Source: Eledone cirrhosa
Lineage: Eukaryota
Assembly (NCBI GenBank): GCA_964016885.1
Contig: OZ024741.1
Coordinates: forward strand, 126,046,001 to 126,110,000
DNA length: 64,000 nucleotides
Direction: 5' to 3'
Translations under genes and position numbers: made by a program
The notes under the pieces: generated by a model
The model's database searches: none
What the model saw: the letters and a program-made list of their open reading frames with translations, nothing else
Told to the model about the DNA's origin: nothing
Shown here: in pieces, positions 2,866 through 57,338 of the stretch
Layout of the letters: each line of letters opens with the position of its first letter
Position numbering within the stretch: position 1 is the stretch's first letter

Positions 2866-3254
2866 CAACTAATATATATATATATATAGGTAAGGGTATA
2901 TGTTACTGCTCCTAATGAAAATCTTTTAAAATTTATATTCGTGAGCTGACTTTAGGTCCTAATAGTGACTACATGTGGCACAATATGATTAATTACTTCA
3001 CGTATTAATCAATATTTTACTAAACACGCACACACATATATATCTATAAAACCTAACATATAGCTCCTTACAACTATCCAGCGTATTTAGGTAATACTAA
3101 AACTATCGAATATTAACCCTTTATTAACTATTTTGTGTACGTTGTATTATGTTATATCATGGTCAACTATAACATAACATAAGTTGTCTTCGTATTTCCT
3201 TATTGTTTTTTTCCCCATAGATTTATATGTAATAGACATTTCTGTGTAGAAATA

Positions 3255-3455
3255 ATTGTTTCAACATTTGGCACAAGACAAACGATTTACTGGGAAGGGA
3301 AAGTTGATTAAATTGACCCCCAATGCATTACTGGTACTTTATTTTATCGATTCCCGTAAGGATGAAATGCAAAACTAACCTCGACGGGTTTTGAACTCAG
3401 AACGTAAAGGCACGTAACTATATATCACAAAATATGCCAATTCACCGCTCTATTC
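3255..3455 (-). mobile_element. tRNA-derived SINE (family 1)
   Basis: Matches the recurrent motif ggcacaag...ctggtactttattttatcga...gtaaggatgaaa...cctcg...tttgaactcag; B-box GAGTTCAAA on the - strand. Confidence 0.8.
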
Positions 3456-4345: not shown

Positions 4346-4604
4346 TATATGTGTGTGTGTGCGTGTGTATGTGTGTATACATAAACAGATACTTGTGTGT
4401 CTCTACGTATTTGATACAACCTTATAGTTATATATATAAAAAACCAATGTTAATGCATCAATAATTTTTATCCATCAATCCATCTATCTATAGGCCTTTA
4501 AGTCTTGATGGAGTTTGTGGTAGTTGGTCCTAGTGGAATCCACCTTCCAAACTAGGAATGAATAATAGCCGATTCCAAATAGTCGATGATATTGGACCGC
4601 CTAT

Positions 4605-5220
4605 TAATGGTTTCTGATTCAGGCACAAGACCAACAATTTTCAAGAAGTGGAAAGTCGAGTAAATCGACTCCAGTGTGTTACTGGTACTTTATTTTATCA
4701 ATCCCGTAAGGATGAAAGGCAGAGCTAACCCCAGTGGGATTTGAACTCGTGGACTATAGATTAATTGTTTCTACTTTTGGCACAAGGCCAGCAATTACCC
4801 AGTGCATTACTGGTACTTTATTTTATCGACCCCGTAAGGATGAAAGGCAAAGTCAACCTCGGCGGGATTTGAACTCAGATCGTAAAGGGACGTAACTATG
4901 CTGGAAAGCATGGCGTCCGACCCTCTACCGATACTGCCAATCCAAGATTAATGAATATTATAGAGTCGCTATACGGTCGCTTGTCATGGTAGATAGCAGG
5001 CAATTTCCCTGAAAACCACTCACCATAGGCTTTGAAACGTTCACGTTGGATAATATCGTTTTAGGTAAATTATTTAGGGATGGTCGTGGCTTTAATGTAT
5101 TCCATATTAGATTTACTGTATCAGAGCTGACTTAGAAATAAACAACAAGCGGTTGCTTAGCCTGCTAGATATAGCAGCCACATCTTCCTTAAATAATATC
5201 CTACCGTCTTGATAAAGGGT
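4605..5220. mobile_element. Composite SINE cluster (family 1 + second SINE) with a nested younger SINE
   Basis: Colinear with 40930-41345; extra SINE at 4766-4944 flanked by TSD agattaat (4758-4765 / 4945-4952). Confidence 0.75.
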
Positions 5221-11355: not shown

Positions 11356-12003
11356 ACGTTATACTTATTTTACCCTCCCATCTCCAATTAAACCGAACGT
11401 TATCATGACTGTATGTGTGTGTTTGTGTAAATGTATATGTGTGAATGTATGTATGTCTGTGTAAATGTATATGTGTGAATGTATGTATGTTTGTGTGAAA
11501 GTATGTGTGAATGTATGTATATGTGTGTGAAAGTAAGTGTATTTGTGTGAATTATGTCCGTGAGAGTGTATTTTTATGAGTTTGTGTTTGCGCGATTATA
11601 GTTATATACTTATAATAGTTATATACTCATACATATAGACGTATGTATGTGCACAATCATACACGTCAGCATGTAGAAAGTCATAATCTCTCTATCTCTT
11701 TCATGACACACTCTCTCTTTCTATATATATGGCAATTGAAATGGTGGTGGTGGCGACGATATACCGGAAGTGCAACTTTGAAAAGAATTCAATTTCAAAT
11801 TATTTATTTTTACGAAATTATTTTTGTTTACGAAATTTAGTAGATAAATTATGTAATATTCATTCATTATTTATTCAAAGTAATCCAACTTATTTTAAAA
11901 ACGGGATAAAAAAAACCGTACGCAGGTTGGTTTGTTTACTCCGGTGTAATGTAAAATAAGTAAGTCAAACATGTTAAATTTGGTTTCGTTTATTATAAAT
12001 TCT

Positions 12004-12056
12004 CTGCTATGTATATTTCAGTGACAGCTATTATTGGTTGTGACCTCTTCAGGCAG
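12004..12056 (-). ncRNA. Type I hammerhead ribozyme (family A, left arm)
   Basis: Reverse complement of 12293-12345. Confidence 0.7.
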
Positions 12057-12292
12057 TACGAATTAATGTAGAAAGAACAGGTAAACATGGTGTTGAAATG
12101 TGTTCCACTTTGTCAATGCTTCGATATGTCCAGCTCCTGGGTGTGTTCTTAGTCCTCCAGGGAACTGGAATCATATGTTTTCAGTTCCTCGGACGACTAA
12201 CAACACACCCAGGAGCTGGACATATCGAAGCATTGACAGAGTGGAACACATTTCAACACCATGTTTACCTGTTCTTTCTACATTAATTCGTA

Positions 12293-12345
12293 CTGCCTGA
12301 AGAGGTCACAACCAATAATAGCTGTCACTGAAATATACATAGCAG
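12293..12345 (+). ncRNA. Type I hammerhead ribozyme (family A, right arm)
   Basis: ctgc-CTGAAGA-ggtcaca...tgtcact-GAAA-tatacaT-A-gcag; stem I ctgc/gcag; AUA site. Confidence 0.7.
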
Positions 12346-12390
12346 AGAATTTATAATAAACGAAGTCAGATTTAACATGTTTGACTTACT

Positions 12391-12442
<52 letters not shown>

Positions 12443-13316: not shown

Positions 13317-13377
<61 letters not shown>

Positions 13378-13504
13378 AAAGTTCTATTTAAATTGTTGGG
13401 ATACAACAAGCAAATATTTTTATAACTGATATAAAGCACTCGACAAGTATTTGGAGTAAATATACGATATTAACAAATGGAAACTATATTTATAAAACCA
13501 TATC

Positions 13505-13569
13505 TATTTTATTATACATATTTCAAGGATACCATGTTAAATTATGTTATGCTTTCATCAGACAAAATA
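13505..13569 (-). ncRNA. Type I hammerhead ribozyme (family B)
   Basis: Reverse complement of 13731-13795. Confidence 0.7.
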
Positions 13570-13730
13570 CAATATATACCAGTTTTATAAATAAATATTG
13601 ACATACCCTTACAAAATGCAACCGTTACTATTGGAAGACATCGGGATAGACTATCCCGATGTCTTCCAAAAGTAACGGTTGCATTTTGTAAGGGTATGTC
13701 AATATTTATTTATAAAACTGGTATATATTG

Positions 13731-13795
13731 TATTTTGTCTGATGAAAGCATAACATAATTTAACATGGTATCCTTGAAATATGTATAATAAAATA
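13731..13795 (+). ncRNA. Type I hammerhead ribozyme (family B)
   Basis: tattttgt-CTGATGA-stem II-GAAA-tatgtaT-A-ataaaata; 8-bp stem I; near-palindromic stem III. Confidence 0.7.
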
Positions 13796-13834
13796 GATAT
13801 GGTTTTATAAATATAGTTTCCATTTGTTAATATC

Positions 13835-13911
<77 letters not shown>

Positions 13912-14276: not shown

Positions 14277-14790
14277 TAGTTTTAATATAGATGAGATTCT
14301 ACAGGACTAGAACTGTTTCATTCTTTAGAAATCATCAGGAATCTGGCTTTCCAAGATAAATGTTGTGGTATTTATATCTTTTCAGGTGGTAGGAGAGGGT
14401 GGGGAGTGGGATGGGTGGAGGTCATTGGTTGAAAGAAAAGGGAATTCATTAAAACTAATTCTTTAAGGCTATAATTTATATTTAGAGTGACAAAAGCAGA
14501 TAGAATTCTATAAACAAGTTCAGATTGGGGAGCCACTCCTTATTTTAAATTTCTCTTAAGCTAACAATGCCTATATTTCAGGTGTCTATAAGATGGTTGG
14601 GGGTCGGTCATGGTTGATGGATTTAAAGAAAAGGGAAATTCTTTAAAAGCTAATTCTTTAAAGCTCTACTTAGAAAGACAAAGGCCAAGAGAATTCTATA
14701 AACCAGTTCAAAATATTGGGTGCCTATCATACCATTATTGTCATGTTTCTCTTAAGCTATATTCCAGGTGTCAACAGACACATTCTCACA
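14277..14790 (-). mobile_element. Non-coding hammerhead element, family F (two internal subrepeats)
   Basis: Reverse complement of 29490-29817 plus one extra ~170-bp internal unit; flanked by (TA)n and (CA)n. Confidence 0.8.
14294..14344 (-). ncRNA. Type I hammerhead ribozyme (family F)
   Basis: Identical reverse complement of 29750-29800. Confidence 0.8.
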
Positions 14791-15003: not shown

Positions 15004-15042
15004 GATATTAATAAATGGAAACTATATTTATAAAACCATATT

Positions 15043-15107
15043 TATTTCATTATACATATTTCAAGGGTACCATGTTAAATTATGGTATCCCTTCATCAGA
15101 CAAAATA
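15043..15107 (-). ncRNA. Type I hammerhead ribozyme (family B)
   Basis: Inverted copy of 15256-15320. Confidence 0.7.
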
Positions 15108-15255
15108 CAATAAATACCAGTTTTATAAATAAACATTGACGTACCCTTTCAAAATGCGATCGTTACTTTTGGAAGAAATCAGGATGTCTTCCAAAAGTAA
15201 CGGTCGCATTTTGAAAGGGTACATCAATGTTTATTTATAAAACTGGTATATATTG

Positions 15256-15320
15256 TATTTTGTCTGATGAAGGCATACCATAATTTAACATGGTACCCTT
15301 GAAATATGTATAATGAAATA
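15256..15320 (+). ncRNA. Type I hammerhead ribozyme (family B)
   Basis: tattttgt-CTGATGA-aggcataccat...atggtaccctt-GAAA-tatgtaT-A-atgaaata. Confidence 0.75.
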
Positions 15321-15494
15321 AATATGGTTTTATAAATATAGTTTCCATTTATTAATATCGTATATTTACTCCAAATACTTGTCGAGTGCTTTATATCAGT
15401 TATAAAAATATTTGCTTGTTGTATCCCAACAATTTAAATAGAACTTTTGCATATATATATATATAAATATATATATATACATATATACACACAT

Positions 15495-15636: not shown

Positions 15637-15711
<75 letters not shown>

Positions 15712-15752
15712 TTCAAAATATTAACAAAAATAGACATTGGTGTGATCAAGTA

Positions 15753-15819
15753 TATTTTATTATACATATTTCAGAGGTACTGAGCTATCTTCAACAGTTC
15801 GTCCTCGTCAGATAAAATA
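15753..15819 (-). ncRNA. Type I hammerhead ribozyme at the PLE 3' end
   Basis: tattttat-CTGACGA-ggacgaactg...cagtacctct-GAAA-tatgtaT-A-ataaaata. Confidence 0.75.
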
Positions 15820-17727
15820 AGATGATGCATGACATACCCAGTCATCGTAGTGAATATGATATGACAAGACTCAATATTTATATAGCTTAAGATTGAGACA
15901 TGAACAAATTTACATATAATACAGAGGGTGCGTGTGAGAAAGCTTAAAAATACATAATAGCAATTTACATAACTGTTAGAGATTCAAATAATTTAAATTA
16001 TTGAAGAAAGAAAGAAGAAAGACAGTGAGAAGCAGATGAGGAACAAATATAGTTACTAGAAGTATAGAAAGCAAAAGAGAATTGATCAAGGGGAATAATT
16101 TTTATATTATAAAGCATAGATAAATACATGAATATACATTTCGGCATAGCTATGTGAAAGAGTAAACTCGAATCTTTGAATTATCTAGAAGTATCCATCT
16201 ATCTAAATATTAAATATATCTGGGTGTAATTATATGAGGGTTTAATTTCGAGTCCTCAATTAATAAGAAATATACTAACAATTATTTATATACACTATAT
16301 ATATCCAAACTTATCCGGCTGACCGTTATATTTCGAATTCCTTATGTTAGTTCAGAATAATGGATTAATCTAAAGGTATATTTTAGGCTATAAAAGTTTA
16401 TAAATGTCTATATTAATATTAAAGTATACTAACATTTAATTTATAAAATCATATTTAAAGTATTTTCATCCACACGAAGGTAAACCATATTAAATTATAT
16501 TATCTTATATTATTTTCCTATATTAAAATAATTCTCACTATATAATTTAGAAAATAATTACAGTTATAACTTTAAAAATTTTAAATTAACAATTAGAATG
16601 CCCTAAAGTATCTAAAGGCCTTATAATTAAACTTTAAAAAGTTATTATTAAATTAGATATAAGCATTTGTCTAAATATATACAAAGAGTATATTGTCTAA
16701 AGTTCAAGACGATATTAGTCAGTTATACATAACATAATATAATATAATATAATATAATATAATAAATAAGTTACTGTTAATATTGTTACAATTAAGGTTC
16801 TAGATCAATTATTGTATCTTAGGATCATGTAATACATATATACTATACAAATTTCATGAATCATAAGGATACGAACCAGATTCAAAGTAAATAAGTAAAT
16901 TGTTTGCGATCATATAAGTGCCAAATATTTAAGCTATATAATTTAAAATACAAGAAAATTTTTAAGGATCTATATTGTAGTATAATATCATATTTAAAGT
17001 GTCTGCAAACATGAGAAAGAGAAAACTTAAGATTTTCATCGACCCGAAGGTAACCCGGATTTAATTAAATAAAAAAATAATAATCGTTATATAATTTAGA
17101 AAATATTTAACAATTATAACACTAGAATGTCCTTAAGTATCTAAAGTATTTATAAATGTAGCTAGAAGCATGTTATTATACTAGATATACACATTTGTCC
17201 AAATATATACAGAGTATTCTGTTCGGAACTCAAGACGATATTAGTGATCCATATACATATAATAAATAAATAATAAAAACATTGTTAGTAAAGTTATAAT
17301 TGAAGTTTAACATCAAGTTAAGTGGAAAAAGTTTGTCGACTAGGATCGTGTACGACGCATATACCATACATATATATAAACAAATATAAATATATAAATC
17401 AAACATCCTGAATCTTAAAACTAACATACTCCAAAAGAATAAATACATAAATACGTAAAAGCATGAATTGCTTACGGTTCATTACAACTGTCAACCATAT
17501 AAGCTATATATTTAAAAAAATACAAGAATCCCAATCAAATTAAATGTATCTACACAATAAAAAAATATGCATATTCATCAAGAGATCGTGTTAACAATCT
17601 ATATGTTAATATATTTATATAGAACCCTTAATCTAACATTAATCATATCATAAATGAGTAAAAAAAATTAATATAACATTTTACGCACTCAGTTGATACG
17701 AGACGTCAAAAATTAGAACGTATTTAT

Positions 17728-19411
17728 TTAGTGTTTTTTCCTGACTTTTTGCGAGGCTTGGAATGTAGAGGAAGCTTTATGAAGGCAATTTGAGAATAAT
17801 TCACTTTTTTTGTTAATTAAATTATCATAATTATTAATTATTAATAGGGTCTCCATAGTACAGAGATTGCAGTTAGGTGATATTGACGAATTCGAGTATA
17901 TTCGACTATTACACAGCTTCGACCAAGAAATCGAGTATTTTAAATGTTTGTCTTTTAACGACCATATAAGTTGTGATAAAGAAGTCGAAGATTTCCTATT
18001 AGGATTCGAAAAAGAGTATTTGTGATTTGAAAATCTTAATTTAAATGTCGATGAAGTTGCACCAATGTAGCTGTATGTGATGTTATTTGCTTTTACGGTG
18101 CATTTATAGACCAGATTGTTATCCAGACAATTATTTTGCAGAGGGCAATTTGATCTATTCCTACAATTACATTTCGATTTATTGTTATTACTATAAATTG
18201 GACAATTGACATTAACATTGTTAGTACAAACCATATAACTGATTTAGTTCTGATTTTTTTCACCGATTTATTCACGGTATTGGTGTTTGTATTATAATTT
18301 TTAGAATCTCGTTTGTATATATTAGTCTTATTTTTATCAGGATTATAATTCAAATTATATATTCAATATATATTCTATATATTCAATATTATTCAATATT
18401 ACATCTATATATTTAATATCTATATATTCAATATTATTTTTATAACCCGCCTTTCGTAGCGCGTCATTATAATATCCTGCTTTTTCATCAAATATGGATT
18501 TATTAGCGGATATTCTAGTTATGCGTTTCTGTACACTATTGACTATTGCATTTTTCACGGATTTAGGGTGATTAGAGTAATAGGTAACGCAATTTAAGTT
18601 TTCATTGGCTTATGGAAAGGGTAATAAAAACCAGAGTTTAAGTTAAGGGTAACGTCAAGGAAATTAATTATTTTGGTACTACTTTCAACTTCTAATTTAA
18701 GGTCATAATTTTTAAAGAATTCAATTATAGTCTTCTTAACCCTATTTAATTCTGTATTGCTATGTTTGACAACCGTAAATAAAATATCGTCCCTATATAA
18801 ACCACCGGTAATCTCCGGCAGTTTTCTATTTACCATATTTAAGATAAAAATCCCCAGAAGATCGGTGACCTGCGCTGAGTCCGACGATCCCATGGTAATG
18901 TCAAAGTCTCTATTCCTATCTGAACGGGTCCAATACTCATTGTTGAAATTAATTAGAGTTCTTCTAGCAGATAATATCATATTGATTTCATCTGTAGTTA
19001 GATCTGTATGTTTGTAAGCGTAGGATAAAGCCTTGTTTAATAGGTTAGGTGTAATAGAAGTATAATAGCTTGCTATGTCAATTTGGATGAATTTGTGATT
19101 TTTCTTATTATCTATATTTTTATAGTGTCCTTCCATAAGCTCAATTTAGACTTCAATTTCAGAGTAGGAAGAATTCTATCAATAATATTCTTACTGATTA
19201 CTCCAATATCCGATTCAGATGGAGCTATCAGTCTAACTGGCAGGTCTTCCTCAAAGTTTCTCTTGTGATCCTTAAAATTGATCCTCGGCTGTCTAGGTAT
19301 AAATGGCTCGGTTCTTCCTTCAATTCCAAGTTTGGCTATTAATTTAAATGCATCATTATTGATGTCTATAAGATCTTCAGCCGAGTGCTTCCAATCTATT
19401 GTAATACTCAT
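17728..19411 (-). pseudogene. Disrupted PLE RT-GIY-YIG ORF
   Basis: Five ORF pieces in shifting frames; the segment after VIWF is deleted relative to the 55450-55580 copy. Confidence 0.9.
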
Positions 19412-19442
19412 TCTTTGATTTATTCATTGAATCTTGTTTAAC

Positions 19443-19600: not shown

Positions 19601-19828
19601 AAACAATTGTTAAACAATTGTTAAACAACCCAACCAGGAGCTGGACATATCGGAGTATTGACGGAGTAAAACACTTTAACAACATGTATACCTGTCTCTA
19701 CCACATCAATTCGGACTGCCTGAAGAGGTCACAGCCAATGATGGTTGTCACAGAAATATATATAGCAGTACATACTTAATAAACGAAGCCAAATTTTAAA
19801 TATTTGACTTAATTACTTTATTTTATAT
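19601..19828 (+). mobile_element. Single-arm copy of hammerhead element family A
   Basis: Colinear with 12198-12397 (ccaggagctggacatatcg...ctgcctgaagaggtcaca...aataaacgaag...ttgactta). Confidence 0.85.
19715..19769 (+). ncRNA. Type I hammerhead ribozyme (family A)
   Basis: actgc-CTGAAGA-ggtcacagcca...tggttgtcaca-GAAA-tatataT-A-gcagt; palindromic stem III ATATATAT. Confidence 0.75.
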
Positions 19829-19832
19829 ATAC

Positions 19833-21669
19833 GGGGCGAACTCCTCGCTCTCCGCTCCCTCCGTAACCGAGATGACATCGTCATCAAACCGGCGGACAAG
19901 GGAGGCGCCGTGGTGGTGTGGCGCGCGGACCTCTACACGGCCGAAGCCTTCAGGCAGCTCTGTAACCCCCCTCTTCTACCGCCCTCTACCCTCCGATCCC
20001 TCCCCTCTACCAACAACAAGTCTCCTCCACCATCCAAGACCTTATCGCCTCCTCCCTCCCCCCATCGCTTCCCACCTCATCGTCCGCACCCCCGCCATCT
20101 ACTTCCTCCCCAAACTCCACAAACCCGACAACCCCGGCCGCCCCATCGTCTCCGCTTGCAACTGCCCCACCGAACTCATCTCCGCCTTTCTCGACTCCAT
20201 CCTCGCCCCCCTTGTCACCACCCTCCCCTCCCACATCTCCGACACCAACCACGCCCTGCGCCTTTTCGATTCCTTCACCTACCCACCCGGCCCACAGCCC
20301 TTCCTCTTCACCCTAGACATCAAGTCCCTCTATACCGTCATCCCCCACGCCGACGGCCTACGCGCCCTCAAACACTACCTCGACCTTCGCCCCTCCCCCA
20401 TTTCCCTCCACCCCACCCTCCTTCGCCTCGCCGAGCTGGTCCTCACCCTCAATTGTTTCTCCTTCTCGGGTGAGTTTTACCAACAGGTCACGGGGGTAGC
20501 CATGGGTACAAGAATGGGCCCGAACTATGCCAACCTTTTTGTTGGCCATGTTGAGGCCCAAATCTTTTCCCAGTACACCGGCCCCACGCCCGAACTGTAC
20601 GGTCGTTACATTGACGACTGTATCGGAGCCACGACCCTTACCCGAGAACAGCTCGACTCCTTTCTCTCCTTCTTCTGCTCCTTCCACCCTCCCTCCCTCC
20701 ACTTCACCACCTCTATCTCGACTACCCACGTCCACTTCTTAGACATCTCCTTCGCCTTCGACCCCTCCCACCACTCCCTCGTCACCTCCGCCTTCTTCAA
20801 ACCCACCGACTCCCACTCTTACCTCGACTTCACCTCTTCCCACCCCACCCACACTAAACACTCCATTCCCTACTCCCAACTCCTCAGGATCCGCCGCCTC
20901 TGTAGCCGAGATGCTGACTTCGAGTCCCAGGCCCTTTCCCTAGTCAGCCATTTCATCCGCAGAGGTTACCCCCCTCTCTCGTCCACACCGCTCTCACCCG
21001 CGCCCGTGCTGTCCACCGCTCCACCACCCTCACCCCACACCCACCCACCGTCTCCCCTTCCCCATCACCTACCACCCCTCCACCTTACCCCTCCACCGCA
21101 CCATCCGTCGCCTCTTCCGACGCCTCCAGTCCGACCCCTCCACCTCCCACATCTTCCCAACCCCACTACTCCCCTCCTTCAAATGCGCACGCAATCTCCG
21201 CACCCTCCTCGTCCACAGCTCCCTGCCCCCAACCCACGCTCTGTTCCCCTCCGGTTCCTTTCCCTGTTCTAGGCCCCGCTGCAACACCTGTCCCCACATC
21301 ACCAACACCACCACCTTTCAGGGTCCCAACGGCCACTCTCTCTCTGTCCGGCATGCCTTCCGCTGCACCTCCTCCAACCTAGTCTACGGACTTCGCTGCA
21401 CCGAGTGCAGCGCGACTTATGTCGGACAGACGGGACGTCGCCTGGCGGACCGTTTCACTGAGCACCTCCGGGATATTCGTCTCGGTGGTAGTTCCCCCAT
21501 CGCCCGCCACTTTGGTGGCTCTGGACATTCCGCACGCCATCTCACAGTCTGTGGCCTACTCCAATGCCACGGAACACCCGCCAATCGCCTTAGAGTCGAA
21601 CAAAGAACTATCTTCATCTTACAGACCCACACTCCCCCCGGCCTGAACTCCCCACCCTTATTCCTTTAG
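19833..21669 (+). pseudogene. Frameshifted Neptune RT-GIY-YIG ORF
   Basis: Core RT lies in ORF 19872-21272; frameshifts fall in C-rich stretches; stop tag at 21667-21669. Confidence 0.88.
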
Positions 21670-23111
21670 CCTTCGACCGCCCCCCCACTTATCCCCCACT
21701 AACACACCCCTCCTTTTCACCGCCCACCCCACAACTAACAATACTAACACCTCCACTCCACCCCTCATCCGACCACCCTTCCCTAACTAACATACCTCCC
21801 TTCTTCTCCTCCCCCCTCCTTATCACACGCACACACCCACCGGCACATATATACACGCGCTCACACTAAACACACACCCTACTACCACCACTAACCCTCA
21901 CCCCCACACCTCCATCCCAGCACCCCGCAACTAACCTCACTAACACCCCCTGACCCCAAGCACACGAACACACGCATCCACTTACACCACCCACCCCACA
22001 CGCAACTAACATCACTAACACCCCCAACCCCACACACACGTACCCACACACCCTCGTACACCACCAACTCTACACACCCTACCACCACCAACCCCCACTC
22101 ACACCTGCATTCAACCCTTCCCCACCTCCCGTATACTAACACCCCTTCATCAAACTACACACACACCAGTACACCACACTCCCTCCATAGAACTACACAC
22201 ACCCTTCTCTCCCCGCTCCACCCACACCCTCACTCCACACTCACTCATCCCACTAACACCTCTACTAATACACACACACACCCTCCTCACTCCAACTTTC
22301 ACACCTACCCATCCTCGCCCCTTTACCATTCCACCCGACTGTTGCTATGCCCCCTGACCACCTCCCAGCACAAACAGACACACAGCACTTCCACCGCTTG
22401 ACCACTTCCTGTTGCGCGCGCACCCCACATCTCTCCTCTTCCGACCATCTCTTCATGGAATACTCGTATGTGGAACTTGACCACCACGGAATCTACTAAA
22501 CATCATAGGAATTTACCAACATTTCAACCATCCTCTTACGGAATCACCTATATAACTCACCCACACGCACACCCAAAACAATTTTTTTCTCCCACACACC
22601 ACCTACACCCACAACACGCTTAAACCCCACACACACGTACTTTCCACCACATATTTACACCCTCAGTCTCCTGATTCCTCTCCTCCCACCCCTCTACCCA
22701 CACACGCACAGACACTCCGACCTAAACCACCACCCCACACACACACCTTCCTGAACATGCAACCCCGTTCTTCCCCCAACCCTTACTTTCACATACACAC
22801 ACACACACACGTACACCTACACACACACACCACCTTCAGCCCTCCCCGCTCGGACACCCCATCTCCCTCTCCCCACTCCACCCGCCACCACCCCTACACA
22901 CCCCAAACCCTTCCACCACCTGTTTTACCCCTTTTTAATTTCAGTTTATTTTGATCATGCTTTTATATTTATTTTTTATTTCATTCCTTGTATTTTGATC
23001 ATGCTTTATTTTTATTTTAATTTTTAATTTCATTCGCACCGTTTCCTTTCGCTATATGTCTCTCCACCACTCCCCTACACACCCTTTGAACTCTGTTCCC
23101 ACACACTTCTC

Positions 23112-23143
23112 ACCTGAGGAAGGGCTTATGCCCGAAACGTCGT
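23112..23143 (+). ncRNA. Minimal type I hammerhead ribozyme (PLE-type)
   Basis: ac-CTGAGGA-a-gggc-ttat-gccc-GAAA-cg-TC-gt; palindromic ACGT stem III; GUC site. Confidence 0.8.
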
Positions 23144-23231
23144 TCCCCACCACCACCCCACTCTCCAGAGCGTGAAATTAATAAACATTCGTTGTACTGC
23201 CTCTCTGTTTTGTTCCTGTTCAAATTTTTCC

Positions 23232-24385: not shown

Positions 24386-24688
24386 AAAATAACAGATTAA
24401 AGTTTAAGCAAAGAATCGCTGCTTTCACCCTTATATATATGTATATGTGTGTGTATATTTATATATACATAAGTAAATATCTTTAGGTCGTTTGGAAGCC
24501 TCGACAATGCAAATGGGTAAATCACCGGGTAACAAGGTCCGGTGGTGGAGAGAGAGATGTAATTGGGTGTACGTTGAGAAGCGTGGTGTGTATAAGATGT
24601 TTGAGATGTGTAGAATGAGGGAAGAGTATACAGGTTAAAATAAAAATAACAACACAAGAGAGAGTTACCTTGGGAGAGATTTAATAGT

Positions 24689-24724
24689 CCCTATATATTT
24701 CGGATTCACATCCATCAACTGGGG
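24689..24724 (-). ncRNA. Variant minimal hammerhead-like motif in the 3' pLTR
   Basis: ccc-CAGTTGA-t-ggat-gtga-atcc-GAAA-tata-TA-ggg; non-canonical positions 4 and 6. Confidence 0.55.
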
Positions 24725-25132
24725 TTTTTTTCCGGGGTGGTGGAAAAAGGTTGTCTGTCGGACAAGCCCGGAACGCGTCTTTCGCTGTTTGTTGTTTTGA
24801 ATATCTGAGGTATTCGGCAGAGCGCGCGTGCGCGTGAAATGGGGTCGGTCGTACAGAGGTCAGCGGCCGAATGAGGGAGTGGGATGGCGCTAGCTGTCAG
24901 TCCATTCTCTGCCTGTTTGTTAAATGTTACTGAGTGTGTGTGTGCGTGTGTTGTTGTCTCGCTTAAGTGTGTGTGTGTGTGTGTGTGTGTGTGTTGTTGC
25001 CTTCTTCATCTGTATTGGCAGTGTAGTATGTTCGTATGGTGGAATGCTACTGTGTGTGTGTGCGTGTGTGTGTGTAGTTGTCTCGTTTGCGTGTGTGTGT
25101 GTGTGTTGTGTGTTGTTGCATCACTTGTTAAC

Positions 25133-27735
25133 TTAAACCAGCCATTTCATTTCGCTTCTCTCCGTTCGGTTGTTTATTTGCGGTTGCAGACGTTTGATAA
25201 AAAGCGCTTCCTTGATACGTAACGTGCCGACGTTTCTTTCAGTCGCTAGAATTGTGACAATGGGCCTTCCGTCTTTGTTTCCGCATTTGTCTATGTGTTT
25301 CCGGAAAGACGAGGCCCTGGTTTTAGTGTGTTCCTTGATCCGGATGTGCAAAGGTCGAATTGTGCTACCTATGTAGTATTGGTTGCACCTGTCACATTCT
25401 ATCTTATACACGACGTATGTGCGTAGGCAACAGTTAGCCTGGCGTATCGGGCAGTCTCTGAGGGAGCATGCGTCAGTAGATTTTTCGGGTTTCCTGGAGA
25501 GGCATCTTCGCAGGGAGGGGCCCGAGTGGGCCAGGTGGATGTCGAGGCCCTCCCTCCGTATAGCCTTGCGGATAGCGTTGGTGGTTTTCTCGCCCAGGTG
25601 TGGCATTTTAAGGAAGCACTTGCCTTGGGTTCTTCTCTGTCTCTTGCGTCTGGTGTCTCCTATTCTGTCTGTGATCGAGGTAGGGTACCCGTTCGTCTCC
25701 AGCACCTCGAGGAATCGCTTGGTATGAGTGACACCACTCGCGGGATCGCTGCATCTGTTTTTGATTCGCGCGATCTCGTTCGTGATGTATCCTCTTTTGG
25801 CACTGTTAGGGAGGGCGGACTTGTAGTGAACGAATAGGTCCCTGCAGGCTGCCTTTCTGTAGAAGTTGCAGTGGATCCCTCCTTGTTCCGTGATGTTGAT
25901 TTGGAAGTCGAGGAGGGCGAGTGACCCGTCTTCGTTGGGGTGTTCAACACTGAAGTCAATGTTCTCGTCCGTGTTGTTGAACGTCTCATAGATTCTGTTC
26001 GCCATATCTTGGGAAGATGTGAGGATGAGGATATCGTCCACGTATCTTGAGAAAAAGGCTACTGCGTTGGGGTGGCAGGCGTTGAGTGCCTTGCGTTCGA
26101 GGTTGTCCATGTAGGAGATCGCTAGCACACCTGATAGGCTTGATCCCATGGGCAATCCCGAGGTTTGTTGGTATATTTGGTCAAGGAATCCGAAGTAGGT
26201 GTTGTCGACGACGATGGATAGGAGTTTGTGGATGTCAGTGGTGGTGAGCCCGAAGCAGTGTAGGTCGGTGGATTGGACGCGTTCCATTAGTATATTGACG
26301 GCCGGGAGTGCTGGGACCGAGGTGTAGAGAGCGACTACATCAAGGCTGAAGTCATATCTGTTATTCCTTCTGGTGTCGGGATCCATTTGATGCAGGCGCT
26401 TCAACACCTCCTCGGAGCTGTTAACGTGTCCCGGCAGGTGTCTAAGATGGGTTTGAGTATTCTGGCTAGGAGCCATGAAATTTTGTAGAGTGGTCCCTCC
26501 ACGCTCGATACGATGGGCCTGATTTTCAGTTCGGGTCCCTGTTTGTGTGTTTTCACGAGGTGGTAGAAGGCGGGTAGTATGCTGTTCCTCGTGAGGAGGT
26601 TGTATCTCAGCTTCTTCGGGAGCTTCCGCCGGTCGCAGATGTTGGTCCAGGCGGAGTTGATGTGTTCTTCTATCTGCGCGGGAGTGATTCCCGTGACCTT
26701 GGAGTAGAGGTTGTCATCGTCAAGGTGTTGGAGGGCCAGGGTGTTGTAGGCCTCTCTGCTGATGACGCAGAATTCTTTTCCCTTGTCGGAGGGGAGATAG
26801 ATGAGGTTCTTCGATTTTAGGTTGGAGAGAGTGGTGAGTTGAGATTTGGTGAGGTTACGTGTTGTGCGTGTGTGTGTGTGTTTGTGAAGTATATCCGAGA
26901 TGGAGTGTTTTAGCCTGATGAGTTTAGTGTCGAGTTCGTGGGTGGGGGGTGGAGTGGGTTGTCGGGGTGGTAAGTGGGGAACTTGGGGTGGGTTGTGTCG
27001 GCGCTGTTATTATCTGTGGCGCTGTTGATAGCGGTCATCCATTTAAGTTGGTAAGCGGCTCGACAAAAGTTGGCCTCGATGTTGAGTTTGAGTCTGTCGT
27101 CGAGACGTTGTGAGACGATGAACTTAGGTCCGAGGTGTAGGAGTTTCAGCTCGTCGCTCGTGAGAGTGCCGGTTAGGTCGGTGACCAGGTGCGTCGCATC
27201 GTTGAGGTATGGCTCGGTGTTGGTGGTTGCGGCGGTGGCGGTTGTTAAGTTGTTGTTTTCCACGTGGTTCTGGTCCGTCTGTTCGTTAGTGTTGATGTTC
27301 TCGTTGTGGCGTTTCGACAAGATCCACTCATATTTTCGCTTGAGCCGTTTTTTCTCGTATTGGACTCTTGAGTGGTAGCACTGGTCGATTGCTTTAGTGA
27401 TTTTTAGGAGCAAGTCTCCGGGTGTTATTGGAAGTCGATGTGTCCGCTTATGGACGTGTAATTGGCGGTTGAGATGTCTCAGGATCTGTTTAATACACGT
27501 GCGATGTATGCGGTTAGTGGTGTTTTGGAAGGCTGGTGTACGTAGGCTTACTGGTAAGCGGATGTTCTTGATGGTGTTGGGGATGACATCGTTTTTTAGG
27601 CAGCGTTTCAGGAAAATAATTTGGCAGCCAGCGTTGGCCCATTTCTCCGACAGTCTAAACAGTTCCCTTACGGATGCAAACAATTCCTGGCTCAGGTGTA
27701 AGGATAAGAGAGTATTGAAGTTTGCTTGAAGCATT
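25133..27735 (-). pseudogene. PLE RT-GIY-YIG ORF with about two frameshifts
   Basis: ATG at 27735 (MLQANF); pieces 26910-27735, ~26480-26910 (DKG, RPIVS) and 25133-26476. Confidence 0.88.
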
Positions 27736-27962
27736 GTGGAACAATAAGTAAATATCTTTAGGTCGTTTGGAAGCCTCGACAATGCAAATGGGTAAATCTC
27801 CGGGTAACAAGGTCCGGTGGTGGAGAGAGAGATGTAATTGGGTGTACGTTGAGAAGCGTGGTGTGTATAAGATGTGTGAGATGTGTAGAATGAGGGAAGA
27901 GTATAAAGGTTAAAATAAAAATAACAACAAAGAGAGAGTTACCTTGGGAGAGATTTAATAGT

Positions 27963-27998
27963 CCCTATATATTTCGGATTCACATCCATCAACTGGGG
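27963..27998 (-). ncRNA. Variant minimal hammerhead-like motif in the 5' pLTR
   Basis: Identical to 24689-24724. Confidence 0.55.
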
Positions 27999-28237
27999 TT
28001 TTTTCCGGGGTGGTGGAAAAAGGTTGTCTGTCGGACAAGCCCGGAACGCGTCTTTCGCTGTTTGTTGTTTTGAATATCTGAGGTATTCGGCAGAGCGCGC
28101 GTGCGCGTGAAATGGGGTCGGTCGTACAGAGGTCAACGGCCGAATGAGGGAGTGGGATGGCGCTAGCTGTCACTCCATTCTCTGCCTGTTTGTTAAATGT
28201 TACTGTGTGTGTGTGTGCGTGTGTTGTTGTCTCGCTT

Positions 28238-29489: not shown

Positions 29490-29888
29490 GTATGTGAATG
29501 TGTCTGTTGACACCTGGAATATAGCTTAAGAGAAACATGACAATAATGATATGATAGGCACCCAATATTTTGAACTGGTTTATAGAATTCTATCTGCCTT
29601 TGTCACTCTAAATATAAATTATAGCCTTAAAGAATTAGCTTTTAATGAATTCCCTTTTCTTTCAACCAATGACCTCCACCCATCCCACTCCCCACCCTCT
29701 CCTACCACCTGAAAAGATATAAATACCACAACATTTATCTTGGAAAGCCAGATTCCTGATGATTTCTAAAGAATGAAACAGTTCTAGTCCTGTAGAATCT
29801 CATCTATATTAAAACTTTTATACTCTGCTATGTATTGAGTACCTTACTTACTGTGGTTACCTTCGATTCAAACCGGAATAACTTACCT
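29490..29888 (+). mobile_element. Non-coding hammerhead element, family F, with ~70-bp 3' tail
   Basis: Inverted copy of 14277-14790; flanked by microsatellites. Confidence 0.8.
29750..29800 (+). ncRNA. Type I hammerhead ribozyme (family F)
   Basis: agattc-CTGATGA-t-ttc-taaa-gaa-t-GAAA-cag-loop-ctg-TA-gaatct; all three stems present; GUA site. Confidence 0.8.
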
Positions 29889-29977
29889 ATATATATATAT
29901 ATATATATAATTATATATACACACACAGTCATTATGTATACATAATAAATACATTGATACACGTGTCTTTGCGTGGC

Positions 29978-30332: not shown

Positions 30333-30884
30333 GCATATATGTGTTTGTGTTTCTATGTAAAATTATGAGATTAATATATACTTCATGTGATTATAGGTTT
30401 AATCTGAATGACATGGCTGCTCGGCTTATATAGGTGAAGGGGATTTATCTAAGGTTCCGTAAGAGTCTCTTTTCTTCAGTGAAAGTCTTTAAAATATTTC
30501 TGTTGACACTAATGGCTAACGTCAGGCGTATAATCATACGACACGAAATGAAGTTAATATTTCAATTAACTGCTTGTCATTCATTCTTTTAGTGTTTGAA
30601 GATTAACTCTTAACATCCTGTACCACATGAAACGGCATTATCAAGCTATTCTGTTGCAGCGGGTGTCGCTGCCTATTGTCCACGGGAAAGCTTTTGCGGT
30701 CTTGTCCGCAGACCACAGCCCCAATACCACCGCACCCTAGGCCTAGAGCCCATCACCCTCCCCCATTTTTCTGTGACCCTAGAGGTCTTGCCTTTCCTTT
30801 CCTTTTCGTTTACATAACTACAAAAGACACTCGAATTTATTTTTACAATAAAACGATGATGTTATCTATCTACTATATATAATA

Positions 30885-31282
30885 ATGGTTTCTGATTTAG
30901 GCACAAGGCCAGCAGTTTGGGGGCAGGGGAAAGTTGATTAAATAGACCCCAGTGCGTGACTGGTACTTTATTTTATCGACTCCGTAAGGATGAAAAGCAA
31001 AGCTAACCTCGGCGGGATTTGAACTCAGAACGCAAAGGGCCATAACTCTATGCTGCGAAGCATGGTGTCTGACGCTCTACCGATACATTTTAATTGTTTC
31101 TACTTTTGGCACAAGGCCAGCGATTACCCAGTACATTACTGGTACTTTATTTTATCGACCCCGTAAGGATGAAAGGCAAAGTTAACCTCGGCGGGTTTTG
31201 AACTCAGACCACAAAGGGCCGTAACTCTTTGCTGCAAAGCATGGCGTCCGACCCTCTACCGATACTGCCAATCCACCGCCCT
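30885..31282 (-). mobile_element. Two tandem/nested family-1 tRNA SINEs
   Basis: Full motif with A-box TGGCAGTATCGG and B-box GAGTTCAAA on the - strand. Confidence 0.88.
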
Positions 31283-32273
31283 TACATACATAATAATAAT
31301 AACAAAAAGTACATTAAACGTTAACGTCTTTAACTTTATTTTACTGCACATCTTCACAACGATCTCTCCACTAGTATAGAAACTATGAAACCTTTAACAA
31401 ATCCGCTTTAGCTATTTTCTATTAAATCATTACAGGATATTATGAGTTAAACTATCAGATCTCTACTGACGCTGATTCAAACAACTATAGCCTTCTACAA
31501 TGATGGATCCTCTGTCTATTTCGACGATGGGCCTTCCCTCGATCATCTAAACGGCACTCTCATTAACTTAACGTGCTACCATAACATAATTCTTAAGCAG
31601 GGTGAGTGTAATGTAATGTGATAAAGCTGGAGCTTTAAAATTTTAGTTTAGGGAAGAAAGAACAAGGCCCACGTATAAACTTCCACTGTGATGGATCTTC
31701 CACCAATTTCGGCGATGAGCAATCACTCATTTGATCAATGAGATACCCTACTCGTTAAATTAACGTATAAGTGGTGAAGTATTGCTCAGACACGTGTACC
31801 TTTATATAGCCATCTGGTAGAATCAACGTGACACAATATGTGTCAACACTGAACCTTTGAAAATTTGAAAAACTGTTTCGTCAGAGAGGGAAGAATCGTG
31901 CCCATGACACTTTTTAAAGTTTCGGATACTTGTGGATATGAGCAAAGAAAGAAAGAAGGTATCCCTAAACCGAAATGTTTTGGAATAAAAGCTTCCAAAA
32001 GGCAGCTGGTGATATTAAACCGGGCAAGTATAATTCATAGTTACCGTTTACCCCATTTCATTTACAAGGCTTGTGTCACTCCGAAGCTATGGTAAATGAC
32101 ACTTGCCCGAGAGGCTACACGATGGGATCAAGCCCGACACCTAATGATTTCCACGTGAACCTCTTAACCACACAACCCTATTTGATTCCTAACATAATTA
32201 TTTGATTTTTTTTCAGAAGAATATTTTAAAACCAAATAAAGTTAAATTCTTCTTCTTCGTCCACTTATCCCTA

Positions 32274-32613: not shown

Positions 32614-33519
32614 GTTCATTTTCTTTCTTTAAAAAAATCTCTGTTCTTTCACGAGACATTACTGTTGTTACAGGTACCGATGTAGTTGTTATTAATCATC
32701 ATCATCGTCATCATCACTGTCGTTGTTGTCATCTGCATCGTTGTTACTATTGTTGTCATCATCTTTGTCGTTGTTGTTGGTATTTCAGCTCAACTTGACA
32801 AAATACGAAGTTTATCCACGCTTTATATTTCCATAACTAGACCAAATACAGTAAAATAAATAGATAAATAGCTAAAATAAAATAATACATAATCTAGGAA
32901 AACATTTTGATGTTACAAATCTATCACAGCTTGAAGATAAATCTTATCTTAGTGTCATTAATAAAGAAATTATGCAGCTCCTGATAGTAATAAAGTGTGT
33001 GTGAGAGAGGGAGATGATCTCGAAAGTAAGGAATTAACTCTATCGTATCAAAAAAAGAAAACTCAGAAAAGCCATCTCTCATGTATTAAACATACATGGA
33101 AAATAGGAAACAGGAAAACAGGAATAGATATGCGAAACATTGAAAATAGAATAAAAAAGGAAAGGAATCGATTGTCAGATCGAACCAAGGAAACAATGTT
33201 TCCATCGGTCTTTCCATTGCTGATACTATCTGGCGATATATTTCATTAAGTGGTACATTTCGTTAAGAGACTGAATTTTCTAGAAAATATGCCACATATT
33301 TATTGTGATAAAGGAAAAGAAAGGATCATATCGTAAAATCAAATCAAGGAGACAACGTTTTTTTTTTTTATTAGTCTTTGCATTACTGATACTGTCAGTA
33401 GCAACTCTTAACAAAAAGAGGTGGGATTTGAAAGTTGGATCAGATATCGTAAATTCTGTCCGGCTCTTCAACAATTTCACCATATCTACAGACCTGGACG
33501 TGTACTTTATTTTATCGCA

Positions 33520-36448: not shown

Positions 36449-36499
36449 ATATATATACAATATATTAATAAATGGAAACTATATTTATAAAACCATATT

Positions 36500-36565
36500 T
36501 ATTTTATTATATATATTTCAAGGGCAACCAAGGCAAATTATGGTACGCTTTCATCAGATAAAATA
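36500..36565 (-). ncRNA. Type I hammerhead ribozyme (family B)
   Basis: Inverted copy of 36704-36769. Confidence 0.72.
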
Positions 36566-36703
36566 CAGATTTGTTTTATAAATAAATATTGACATACCCG
36601 GAAAAAAGACAACCTCAACGGTTGGAGCTACCTGGATAGCTATCCAACCGTTGAGGTTGTCTTTTTTCCGGGTATGTTAATATTTATTTATAAAACAAAT
36701 CTG

Positions 36704-36769
36704 TATTTTATCTGATGAAAGCGTACCATAATTTGCCTTGGTTGCCCTTGAAATATATATAATAAAATA
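36704..36769 (+). ncRNA. Type I hammerhead ribozyme (family B)
   Basis: tattttat-CTGATGA-aagcgtacca...tggttgccctt-GAAA-tatataT-A-ataaaata; perfect 8-bp stem I. Confidence 0.75.
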
Positions 36770-36807
36770 AATATGGTTTTATAAATATAGTTTCCATTTA
36801 TTAATAT

Positions 36808-36862
<55 letters not shown>

Positions 36863-42505: not shown

Positions 42506-42507
42506 TA

Positions 42508-53415: not shown

Positions 53416-53435
53416 CCCTATATATATATTACATC

Positions 53436-55583
53436 AAAATATTAATAAATATAGACATTTATGTGATCAAATATATTTTATTATACATATTTCAGAGATA
53501 CTGAGCTATTTCAACAGTGCGTCCTCATCAGATAAAATAAGTTGATGCCTGACATACCTTGACTATGTTGATGGTTATAATTTAGTCATGGCAGTGATTA
53601 GTTATGACAAAACTCGATATTTATATACCTTAAGTTGAAACATGAAAAATTACATATAATACAGAGGGTGCGTATGAGAATGTGTACAAAGATATATAAA
53701 TAATTAATAATATATAATACATAAACTTATATAACTGTTAAAAAAATAATATATTCATACCTCATTATTGTTGATAGTGGAAGTGATAGATCGAGATAGC
53801 AAATCATGAGGAAAGAGAGAAAAAGAGAAAAAAAAGGAGATTTGATCGTAGGAACAAGAGAAGGGAGAAATGATCAAATGATAGAGAGAGGAAAATAAAT
53901 TAAATCGTATAATCAAAGGGAGGAAGATATGCATTGTAACATGTAAATAGCGTATAATTAGATAGGGGCAAAGAATATATCGTAACCGTTTATTTTCAAA
54001 TCTTAAGTTAATTGAAAATAGTCAATTAATCAAATGACATAAGATTTTAGACTATAAAATTTTAAAGGATTTATATTATTGTATTATATCTGAGTTCAAG
54101 CAAATGTAACGTGAAAGAGATAAATTTATGTCTATCATAACTCCAAAGGTATTCACAAGTATATTTAAAAGTATATTAAAATCAAGAATATAATCAATAT
54201 GTTGGTAAAAAAAAACCTTAAAATTAAAATGTTATTAATAAGTCATAAAGCATTATAAATGTATCTAATAAGATATTATTAAACCAGATTTATCTAGATA
54301 TACACATTTACATAATATATATATAGACTATAAATTTTAAGGTTTAAGACGATATTAGTCACTTATATGTAGTATAATTTCTGTTGAGAGTGTTATAAAT
54401 TTAATTCAACTAGATTTTACTGTATTTAAAATTTTACATGAATTTAAGTATACAAAAAAAATTTATCAATTTGGATCTAAGGAGACTTTTATACTATAAA
54501 TGTATAATCATATCCTCGTGAATCGTAAATAACCATTCAAAGTAATTAAACGGTTTACAAGCCTGAATACATTAAAGGTATCAAATATATAAGATATAAG
54601 ATTTAGAAAATACGAAAACCAAAATTAAATGTATTTAAACAATCTAAAGGTCATACGTACTCAACAAGAGATCAGGTTAACAATTTCAATGTTAAGGTAG
54701 AAAACCTTAATCTAATATTAATAATAGTATAAATAATAAAAGCATTACAAGAATTTTTAATCTGAGACAATATTGTTTCACACTCAGAGTTATTAATAAA
54801 CGTCTAAATCATTTCACATTTATTCAATGTTTTCTCCTGATTTTTTGTGAAGCTTGGAATGTAGATGTAACTTTGTGCAAGCAATTTGAGAATAATTCAC
54901 TTTTTTTGTTAATTAACTTATCATAATTAGTAATTATTAATAGGGTCTCCATATCACAAAGATTGCAGTTAGGTGATACGGAGGAATTAATGTAGACTTG
55001 GCTATTACAAAGTTTTGACCAATATATTGAGTACTCTAAATTTTTGTCTTTCAAGGCCCATATGAGTTGTGATAAAGAGTTGGAGATTTTCTTATCTGGA
55101 TTCGAAAAAGAGTGCTTGTGATTCGAATATCTTAATTTAAAGCTCGATGAGGTTGCTCCTATATAGTTGTAGGTGATGTTATTTGCATTAACAGTACATT
55201 TATAAACTAAGTTCTTATCAAGACAATTATTTTGCAGAGGGCAATTCGATCTATTTCTACAGTTACATTTCGATTTACTGTTATTATTATAATTTAAACT
55301 GTACACGTTATCATTGCTAATAGTTGGAGGTGTTCTGTTGTGAGTGGTTAAGTTAATGTTATTGTTATTTGCAGTATCAATATTATTGCTAATGTTAATA
55401 TTGCCATTATCCCTAATTGTTTGTTGGTTATGATTAAGAATTCTACTATTTATTTTTGCAATATCTGTGCCATATTCATAGTTGTTGAGTATGATAGTTT
55501 AATTGTATGTCTATTGAATATAGAATGGTATTTATGTGTACTGGGAAAGCATTTATCTAAAGCCTTAAAGAATAAATTTGCCA
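53436..55583 (-). mobile_element. Second, diverged copy of the Nematis-type PLE (GIY-YIG + 3'UTR + HHR)
   Basis: ORF 54824-55306 is highly similar to 17728-18234; KALDKCFP..HKYHSIFNRHTIKLSYS; homologous 3' end. Confidence 0.92.
53474..53539 (-). ncRNA. Type I hammerhead ribozyme at the PLE 3' end
   Basis: tattttat-CTGATGA-ggacgcactg...cagtatctct-GAAA-tatgtaT-A-ataaaata. Confidence 0.75.
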
Positions 55584-56227
55584 GTAATGATTCTCCCCAG
55601 CAACTGTGGTTCAGTTTCATGACGCTTGGGAATGTCTTGACATACCTGCATGCACCGCTTCTTTTGGTCATCGTTCAGTAGCTTCGTTACCATCTTTGCG
55701 CAGATCTTCCGCATGCCCAAATCTTTAGTGATAATCTTCCAAACGCTGTCGCGGATCCATACCGGCTCACTTGCGATCAATCAAGCAGTCAGCCAACAGT
55801 CACCACGTACCACATGCCACACGCACTCAACGTTCGTCTCAGTCCTGCTCGTCGAAGACCTTCCGCTCTGGGGATCGTCTTCCACGTTCTCACGTGCCTC
55901 TATGAACATTTTGTACCACATGAAAACCTGTGAGCGCAACATCACTCATCTTCGTACACTTGCTGCAGTATTCCGAGTGCATCTGATAGATTTCCCCCCA
56001 GCCAGACCAGAAACCTCAGGTTAATTCGTTGCTCTGTGTCCATCATTCGATGGCTTAAAATTGAGGAGTTGTTAACAAACGCACATGAAAAAGCATACAA
56101 TGGTTGCAGAGAACTGAGATCGCAGTAATATACTCTCCGGCTATTACATCATACGGTGTCACAACCTGCTAATCCCTACCCCAGTGATATCTTATACACT
56201 GTCCTCTTACCGTTCTGACGCACCGTG
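55582..56227 (-). mobile_element. Tc1/mariner 5' fragment
   Basis: TA + TIR-like cacggtgcgtcagaa; EDDPQSGRSSTS, ITKDLGMRKICAKMVTKLL, GRIITG. Confidence 0.88.
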
Positions 56228-56559: not shown

Positions 56560-56789
56560 ACAAAGAAATATACAGACACATGCGAATACATACATATACA
56601 TGCATATACCCACATATATTCCTGAATTTGAGTGGTGCCAACCTTAACCGTTGTTGCTCTATGAGTAATAGGGACAAAATAATCTGAATGGATTAGATTG
56701 ATTCAATATCAGAGCTATATAATACATTATAAAGAAAGAAGAAACATTAGATATAAATAAAAAGATATAATATACCTAAATTCCTTCAT

Positions 56790-57287: not shown

Positions 57288-57338
57288 ATGAAGGAATTTA
57301 GGTATATTATATCTAATGTTTCTTCTTTCTTTATAATG

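Follow-up and report, generated by a model that had tools for sequence, protein, structure and literature searches.

The locus considered here raises the question of how short palindromes that carry no open reading frame (ORF) come to end in the same 3' module as Penelope-like elements (PLEs). The window, i.e., the whole analyzed stretch of 64 kb, is AT-rich animal DNA that is rich in (TA)n and contains several PLEs. In a preliminary description, its family-B palindromes were paired with a "Nematis-type" PLE as a probable autonomous partner, such that the shared module would be the cis-recognition signal of the RT-GIY-YIG protein, in analogy with LINE/SINE pairs. The features in question are as follows.

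13375..13464, - strand: tail X on the left arm of palindrome B1, 90 nt, then (TA)n
13465..13835: palindrome B1, arms 184/185 identical, centre at 13650
13505-13569 (-) and 13731-13795 (+): predicted hammerheads of B1, facing outward
15004..15360: palindrome B2, arms 97% identical
15051-15107 (-) and 15256-15312 (+): predicted hammerheads of B2
15361..15450, + strand: right-arm tail X of B2, matching the B1 tail at 90/90 positions
36462..36812: palindrome B3, arms 97% identical; both ends enter (TA)n, tail-less
36508-36565 (-) and 36704-36761 (+): predicted hammerheads of B3
15710..19440, - strand: PLE1, a PLE truncated at its 5' end, flanked by (TA)n tracts and carrying Hydra-clade motifs
19390-19124, 19124-18600 and 18621-18367, - strand: RT of PLE1, in three frames
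18243-17728, - strand: EN of PLE1; the RT-EN linker upstream is partly missing
about 15710-15960, - strand: 3' end of PLE1, a terminal block of ~250 nt
15753..15819, - strand: predicted type I minimal hammerhead of PLE1, stem I 15819-15812 / 15760-15753
from 15811, - strand: core of the PLE1 hammerhead; GAAA at 15772-15769; 2-bp stem III
between 15761 and 15760, - strand: predicted cleavage site of PLE1 (AUA), placed by hammerhead numbering
53430..55584, - strand: PLE2, Hydra-type EN and 3' end; upstream part broken by a mariner-like fragment
about 53430-53700, - strand: 3' end of PLE2
53474..53539, - strand: predicted hammerhead of PLE2
15830..15838 (PLE1) and 53550-53558 (PLE2), - strand: GGTATGTCA in the PLEs
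13693-13701 (+), 13599-13607 (-) and 36590-36598 (-): GGTATGTCA in family-B arms

The motifs of the two PLEs speak against their assignment to Nematis. Both ENs have a CxCx5C linker, a single Cys between GIY and YIG, a CxxC ahead of the conserved E and a CxH after the N, and neither PLE1 nor PLE2 contains the CX2-5CxxC linker of Nematis or its CCHH motif, which includes two Cys between GIY and YIG. In PMC8557442, the Hydra clade is defined by the CxCx5C linker, the absence of CCHH, and CxxC and CxH around E and N, whereas the Nematis rows of Fig. S2 show CxxC and two Cys in the GIY-YIG span. As in the Hydra clade described there, both elements are inserted into (TA)n (with a short TA tract in the case of PLE2) and carry a hammerhead near the 3' end. 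On these motifs, PLE1 and PLE2 appear to fit the Hydra clade, not Nematis. Unlike that clade, they carry a spacer of 1.1-1.8 kb between the ORF and the terminal block; these AT-rich spacers (15957-17727, 1.8 kb; 53697-54823, 1.1 kb) are patchily alike, as reported for Pen1_Av. The N-terminal RWK and DKT motifs of the Hydra clade belong to a region that PLE1 and PLE2 have lost through 5' truncation; among 120 homologs, RW[KR] was found in 65, DK[TS] in 99 and DKG in 8. In an RT tree built without named reference RTs, PLE1 groups with these homologs, far from the two other PLEs of the window, which have two Cys between GIY and YIG.

Elsewhere in the window, the PLE at 19826-23210 (+) is labeled Neptune-like from its motifs (CX2-5CxxC linker, two Cys in GIY-YIG) and has a hammerhead core at 23114; a related 3' end is located at 63196-63972 (-). 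The PLE at 24469-28203, which is young and possibly near-intact, has direct repeats of 462 nt (98.5% identity) and an RT-EN frame of 526 aa (25133-26713, -) with another frame upstream.

Autonomy could not be upheld for either Hydra-type copy: PLE1 shows a 5' truncation, at least two frame switches and a linker deletion, and PLE2, also truncated, retains only the EN, so that at most the families of these copies could be partners of B. The segment that breaks PLE2 (55590-56060, -) we take, from its translated motif, to be a mariner-like transposase fragment. The two ENs share 83% amino acid identity and the two modules are 85% identical; the differences between PLE1 and PLE2 are concentrated at third codon positions (46 versus 14 and 14 at the other two), which indicates separately active families.

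The ordered 3' module itself proved to be real. Stem I, the CUGAnGA core, GAAA and stem III occur in this order eight times in the window, at 6/6 family-B arms and 2/2 PLE ends, and never in 100 dinucleotide shuffles of the window, for a combined pattern that was derived from the same eight ends on which it was scored. When a covariance model is trained on B arms alone, the two PLE ends come directly after them, at 59.9 and 51 bits, and the following match reaches 20.2; nhmmer searches between B and PLE ends agree in both directions. Module identity between B and the PLEs is 56-62%, with z of 3.8-5.4 against core-preserving shuffles, and comparison of B with seven other hammerhead ends in the window gave p>=0.09 in 21/21 pairs. 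B arms and PLE ends are homologous beyond chance, and within the 64 kb, the PLE1 and PLE2 ends are the closest relatives of B.

In a structural alignment of the eight ends, 94% of the cells are paired, a value reached by 0/500 shuffles, and 7 of the 13 pairs show changes on both sides. In the common fold, stem I has 8 bp, stem II has 3 proximal bp and then a C.C mismatch, and stem III has 2 bp. As claimed, the letters of stem II differ and pairing is kept (3 bp with both-sided changes, then C.C in 7/8 rows). Stem I is identical at 7-8/8 positions between B and the PLEs (chance 0.012 and 0.0008) and occurs in all eight ends, with an A-to-G change in the 3' strand of both B2 arms that departs from its given form, tatttt(a/g)t / ataaaata; stem III plus the 3' strand is identical at 15/16 positions between B3 and the PLEs. 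Other details require correction. The GGTATGTCA element is present but exact in only 3/6 B arms, with a variant in the other three; its spacing to the core is 41-46 nt in B versus 27 nt in the PLEs, and it is found at two further places in the window besides the module copies. A homologous TTAATAT exists but is not strictly terminal, being followed by 2-12 more nucleotides before (TA)n. The GGTATGT at 15830-15838, 53550-53558 and 13693-13701 resembles a 5' splice-donor consensus; PLE leaders can hold introns, which would be a possible alternative reason for its conservation.

With its CUGAnGA and GAAA core, three stems and NUH site, the module is a predicted type I hammerhead ribozyme. It resembles known type I hammerheads in its overall fold and tiny palindromic stem III and differs from them in having no G10.1-C11.1 pair (A-U or G.U is found instead), in its AUA cleavage triplet, and in that no Rfam hammerhead family matches the B module or the PLE module. 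The best 150 of 182 Rfam matches in the window include no hammerhead and consist of chance-level microRNA/snoRNA matches, mostly to simple repeats. Free folding of the PLE ends did not recover the full hammerhead and thus lends the module no support; such failure is common for minimal hammerheads. A search with the shared module against contigs of microbial genome records gave 0 matches, which is uninformative for an animal element. In the hammerheads of File S2 of PMC8557442, stem III has 3-4 bp; the present ones have a 2-bp stem III with an AT-rich palindromic loop and, also unlike those, a long stem II with a C.C mismatch.

The similarity between B and the PLEs is narrowly confined. It is not significant in the 5' flank (p 0.065-0.96) and in stem-loop II (p 0.13-0.78), and weak in the 40 nt after the ribozyme (49-63% identity, p 0.007-0.65), compared with 88% between PLE1 and PLE2 and 90-95% within B over the same 40 nt. 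With both flanks outside the ribozyme summed, p is 0.08-0.51 in 6/6 B-PLE pairs, so the resemblance exceeds shuffled controls for the module but not outside the ribozyme. A 10-nt upstream match between B1 and PLE1 was equalled in 10/1000 shuffles. The common signal is stems I and III of the ribozyme. Outside the ribozyme, PLE1 is approached more closely than by any B arm (p 0.0005) by the solo arm (19631-19826) of family A, whose palindrome, another hammerhead palindrome of the window, lies at 11954-12395. Family A has the same ribozyme subtype as B and the PLEs (3-bp stem II, then C.C, and a similar stem III), and its left arm lacks (TA)n.

This level of similarity was calibrated on 14 control loci (L001-L014) obtained by a Hydra-type RT alignment search of microbial genome contigs. 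These loci, which combine Hydra-type PLE reading frames with (TA)n tracts, come from 14 contigs filed under bacterial genomes and are probably animal DNA inside microbial bins; one control hammerhead equals the Hydra-2_aMil row in File S2 of PMC8557442. Among 13 ORF-linked ends (78 pairs), identity from stem I to the end was 92-93% for same-family ends (2 pairs), 65-74% in 10/11 pairs with ENs 67-86% identical (the eleventh, PLE1/PLE2, reached 92%), and 35-61% in the 65 pairs with ENs at most 62% identical. The value for B versus PLE1/2, 62-69%, falls in the range of sister families, which makes them cousins rather than parent and derivative. By contrast, locus L003 contains two hammerhead palindromes that are short, lack an ORF, are built head to head and have one tailed arm; 4/4 of their arms are 98-100% identical to ORF-linked ends in L014 and L012 (next family, 57-74%); such palindromes therefore arise directly from ORF-bearing families. 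LINE/SINE-type pairing is recognized by a near-verbatim common 3' end. B and PLE1/2, at 62-69% against the 98-100% of the control parent-palindrome pairs, do not share such an end, and the proposed analogy fails at this point. In 8/14 Hydra magnipapillata families, judged by eye from File S2 (PMC8557442), stem I is common, so that sharing of this kind marks kinship.

The family-B units are built in a uniform manner. A short, self-complementary motif, homologous in all six arms and located 72-88 nt upstream of the core, marks where each arm begins, and the three subfamilies differ by 7-20%. Arms of one palindrome are far more alike than arms of different palindromes: when the palindromes are compared with one another, both arms carry 10, 25 and 28 of the differences, and only 0, 0 and 1 shared differences are arm-specific, which implies that the arms were made together or homogenized. 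No B-type end with an upstream extension or ORF was seen in the 64 kb, which contains three B palindromes. The X tails, inverted copies 2 kb apart, are 90/90 identical next to B1 and B2 arms that are 7% different, which possibly reflects functional constraint or local gene conversion. No significant match of X to PLE1/PLE2 was found (best E 0.058), as expected if both PLE copies end at the short site. The possibility that X encodes the start of a Hydra-type ORF was considered on account of an S-x-K-N-I string in one frame (3/2000 shuffles; profile score equalled by 26/2000) and was ruled out: X contains no ATG, and the tails in the control loci proved to be non-coding leader sequence, the ATG lying about 185-190 nt downstream of the core.

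What X does contain is a small hairpin, which recurs in a third hammerhead family of the window:

15368..15390, + strand: tail hairpin in X of B2, with an outer stem of 4 bp, a bulge of 2 nt on the 3' side, an inner stem of 3 bp and RC after it
13457-13435, - strand: tail hairpin in X of B1
29822..29843, + strand: tail hairpin in an unrelated hammerhead family, core at 29756

A descriptor modeled on X and the control tails, which demands a 4-bp outer stem, a 2-nt bulge and no fewer than 3 inner pairs, gave 11 matches in the control loci (70.7 kb in total; mean of shuffles 0.42, maximum 2), and 10 of these matches lie 72-106 nt 3' of a CUGAnGA core motif. In the window, it gave three matches, namely both X copies and 29822 (shuffle mean 0.16), the last of which had not been used in writing the descriptor; the hairpin in X was matched by 1/20000 X shuffles. 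In a sequence-only test of 47 hammerhead ends, the outer motif was found in 13 (11 distinct), 12 of which pair 3-7 inner bases at the 2-nt bulge and one of which pairs 2; one of these ends also allows a 3-pair register at a 1-nt bulge. The 34 ends without the outer motif are mostly short ends or belong to other clades but include several long ends, and the left arm of family A is likewise a long end without a recognizable tail hairpin. The inner pairs differ in their letters. The outer stem hardly changes from family to family, its first pair being A-U in the window and G-C in the controls. Among new Hydra consensuses, inspected by eye in File S7 of PMC8557442, the hairpin is present in 3/6 and a variant in one, and two end before it. 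The word "hairpin" does not occur in the main texts of PMC8557442 and PMC3846280, and no earlier description of the tail hairpin was found in the openly searchable literature.

The position of the hairpin relative to the insertion ends is constrained. Short ends stop 2-6 nt before it in 10/10 long/short comparisons, which are not all independent; in the family of 29822, the short-ended sister copy (core 14338, -) stops 5 nt before it. A second copy of the hairpin, with 1-3 inner pairs, is present 58-76 nt before the N-terminal motif in 4/4 control leaders that were found; L009 has both copies, 63 nt apart, and in one control family, the only such case, the long end lies 5 nt short of the second copy. 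The combination of one long and one short end is no rule, since both ends are short in B3 and in one L003 unit. PLE1 and PLE2 end at the short site, and hence their own hairpins are invisible. The third hammerhead family comprises long and short ends (29522-29890, +; 14279-14563, -), with the tail hairpin and no ORF seen, and a related piece is located at 14576-14777.

The conserved hairpin, located just 3' of the module that had been flagged as the cis-recognition signal, is a better candidate for this role than the module, where the similarity is that of ribozyme stems. The behavior of PAc, a Poseidon element of Anolis and the one PLE assayed in vitro (PMC11167929), bears on this point: hammerhead cleavage is dispensable, hammerhead mutants still insert, and RNA starting from +20, 3' of core residues C3 and G8, is still active. 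Both DNA strands are cut and extended by PAc, and two internal start sites create the tail. Like the elements considered here, PAc has an AT-rich target, and its protein is a predicted dimer. An AC-rich stem-loop within the ORF contains the start sites of PAc; here, the ends lie just 5' of repeated hairpins of a non-coding leader. Taken together with the anatomy described above, the behavior of PAc, which belongs to Poseidon and not to Hydra, suggests that Hydra RT-EN may be positioned by leader hairpins.

The reading toward which we lean, only slightly beyond an even balance, is that the family-B palindromes are ORF-less head-to-head insertions of an unseen Hydra family sister to PLE1/PLE2, with the module as an inherited hammerhead. 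The arms would be the 3' ends (pseudo-LTRs, pLTRs) of a Hydra-clade lineage that has no ORF-bearing copy in the window, and each palindrome would be one insertion formed from two heavily 5'-truncated copies joined head-to-head. RT-EN, probably as a dimer, would bind the leader RNA at the hairpins, nick both (TA)n strands and begin cDNA synthesis just 5' of a hairpin; a start at the first hairpin would yield a short end, and a start at the second, a tail. The short palindrome in the centre would be the place where the two cDNAs are joined or fold back, and the ribozyme would process the precursor RNA without being the main recognition signal. More tentatively, and with somewhat less than even confidence, we suggest that a clade-wide hairpin, present in the leader as copies ~60-90 nt from each other, directs reverse transcription to a point 5-6 nt upstream of itself, and that priming by a dimeric RT-EN from both hairpins, on opposite DNA strands, accounts for the one-sided tail, the inverted pLTRs and the ORF-less palindromes. 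Being clade-wide, such a hairpin could let palindromes like B be mobilized across families, and trans-mobilization of B by the PLE1/2 family is possible. B was almost certainly inserted into (TA)n by a PLE RT-GIY-YIG protein.

An alternative that appears rather unlikely is that family B propagates itself as a palindromic retrozyme, i.e., a non-autonomous element in which a single-arm RNA with the tail is copied in trans by any Hydra RT-EN that reads the clade-wide hairpin, possibly that of PLE1/PLE2, and the palindrome is rebuilt in every cycle. The fixed arm start in all three palindromes fits a discrete unit at least as well as chance truncation, although a fold-back hotspot in the parent pLTR would also yield fixed junctions (5' palindromes in pLTRs are described in PMC3846280). 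Three palindromes without an upstream-extended B-type end in 64 kb are in line with such an element; yet control palindromes of like build come straight from ORF-bearing families. The nearly invariant outer stem makes cross-use of the hairpin plausible, non-autonomous PLE derivatives are known (PMC8557442; bioRxiv 10.64898/2026.07.22.740005), and pLTRs alone have moved a host gene in trans (PMC3846280); against this, a read-through palindromic RNA would form one long duplex (-258 to -287 kcal/mol) that locks up the ribozyme, versus about -15 to -28 kcal/mol for the ribozyme region.

The original proposal casts the PLE1/PLE2 families as the specific partner of B and treats GGTATGTCA, stem I, the core, stem III and TTAATAT as the LINE/SINE-like recognition module of RT-EN; we consider it improbable. 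Its valid part is that the PLE ends are homologous to B and are its nearest relatives in the window, with the stem I and stem III matches, the 10-nt upstream match and the common (TA)n target all pointing in this direction; the identity is nevertheless at the sister-family level, with no signal outside the ribozyme, where the family-A solo arm is nearer to PLE1, and the common stem I of the Hydra magnipapillata families (File S2) and the dispensable cleavage of PAc tell against a recognition role. Convergence of AT-rich hammerheads, with B being a fold-back or MITE-like DNA element unrelated to PLEs, is very improbable. In its favor, AT makes up about 80% of the region, the window contains ATAAAATA 45 times and neither module has an Rfam hammerhead match, but the z of 3.8-5.4 was obtained with the core fixed and is specific to PLE ends, B bears the Hydra-type tail hairpin, and control Hydra loci show the same architecture; the hairpin and the control loci largely refute this reading.

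Our preferred reading, a head-to-head insertion from a sister Hydra family, places B among several described systems. In the Hydra clade, Penelope-13_HM has a truncated copy in inverted orientation and hammerheads on either strand, a likeness to B (PMC8557442), and in Schistosoma, dual hammerhead motifs are found on opposite strands 100-700 bp apart, like the B pairs (PMC4209133). Adineta vaga Pen2a/Pen3a have head-to-head pLTRs of about 180-220 bp, a junction palindrome and a one-sided tail; unlike these elements, B has no ORF or passenger between its arms, and its tail, which appears non-coding, is 90 nt compared with 30-40 nt (PMC3846280). As an ORF-less, hammerhead-bearing PLE derivative, B resembles non-LTR retrozymes (PMC7229834; bioRxiv 10.64898/2026.07.22.740005) and, with its common 3' end, non-autonomous Chlamys derivatives such as MRC1 (PMC8557442). 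Retrozymes, however, are head-to-tail tandem arrays with canonical hammerheads (PMC7229834), whereas the B units are two-arm inverted pairs with no head-to-tail tandem hammerhead repeats; B works like an inverted pseudo-LTR unit, not a tandem retrozyme.

The window contains further repeats. An inverted repeat (56722-56920 / 57157-57341) is 92% identical and has no canonical hammerhead core; an abundant dispersed repeat with internal sub-repeats occurs at 3247-3431, 4602-5217, 30872-31312, 33517-34252, 42506-43650 and 50573-51146; and more hammerhead-like motifs, of other families, are located at 62393, 56386, 47409 and 40282 (all -).

Hammerheads on PLE ends, inverted PLE units and non-autonomous derivatives are already known, so that the finding itself is ordinary, and the SINE/LINE analogy and non-autonomous PLE derivatives have been published (bioRxiv 10.64898/2026.07.22.740005; PMC7229834; PMC8557442). 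Template choice by PLEs and the one-sided tail are described as open in PMC8557442 and have been answered in part for one Poseidon element (PMC11167929). The tail hairpin, which covaries and keeps a fixed distance to either insertion end, offers a concrete element to mutate, and it can also be used to predict where elements end and to search for the parent of family B.
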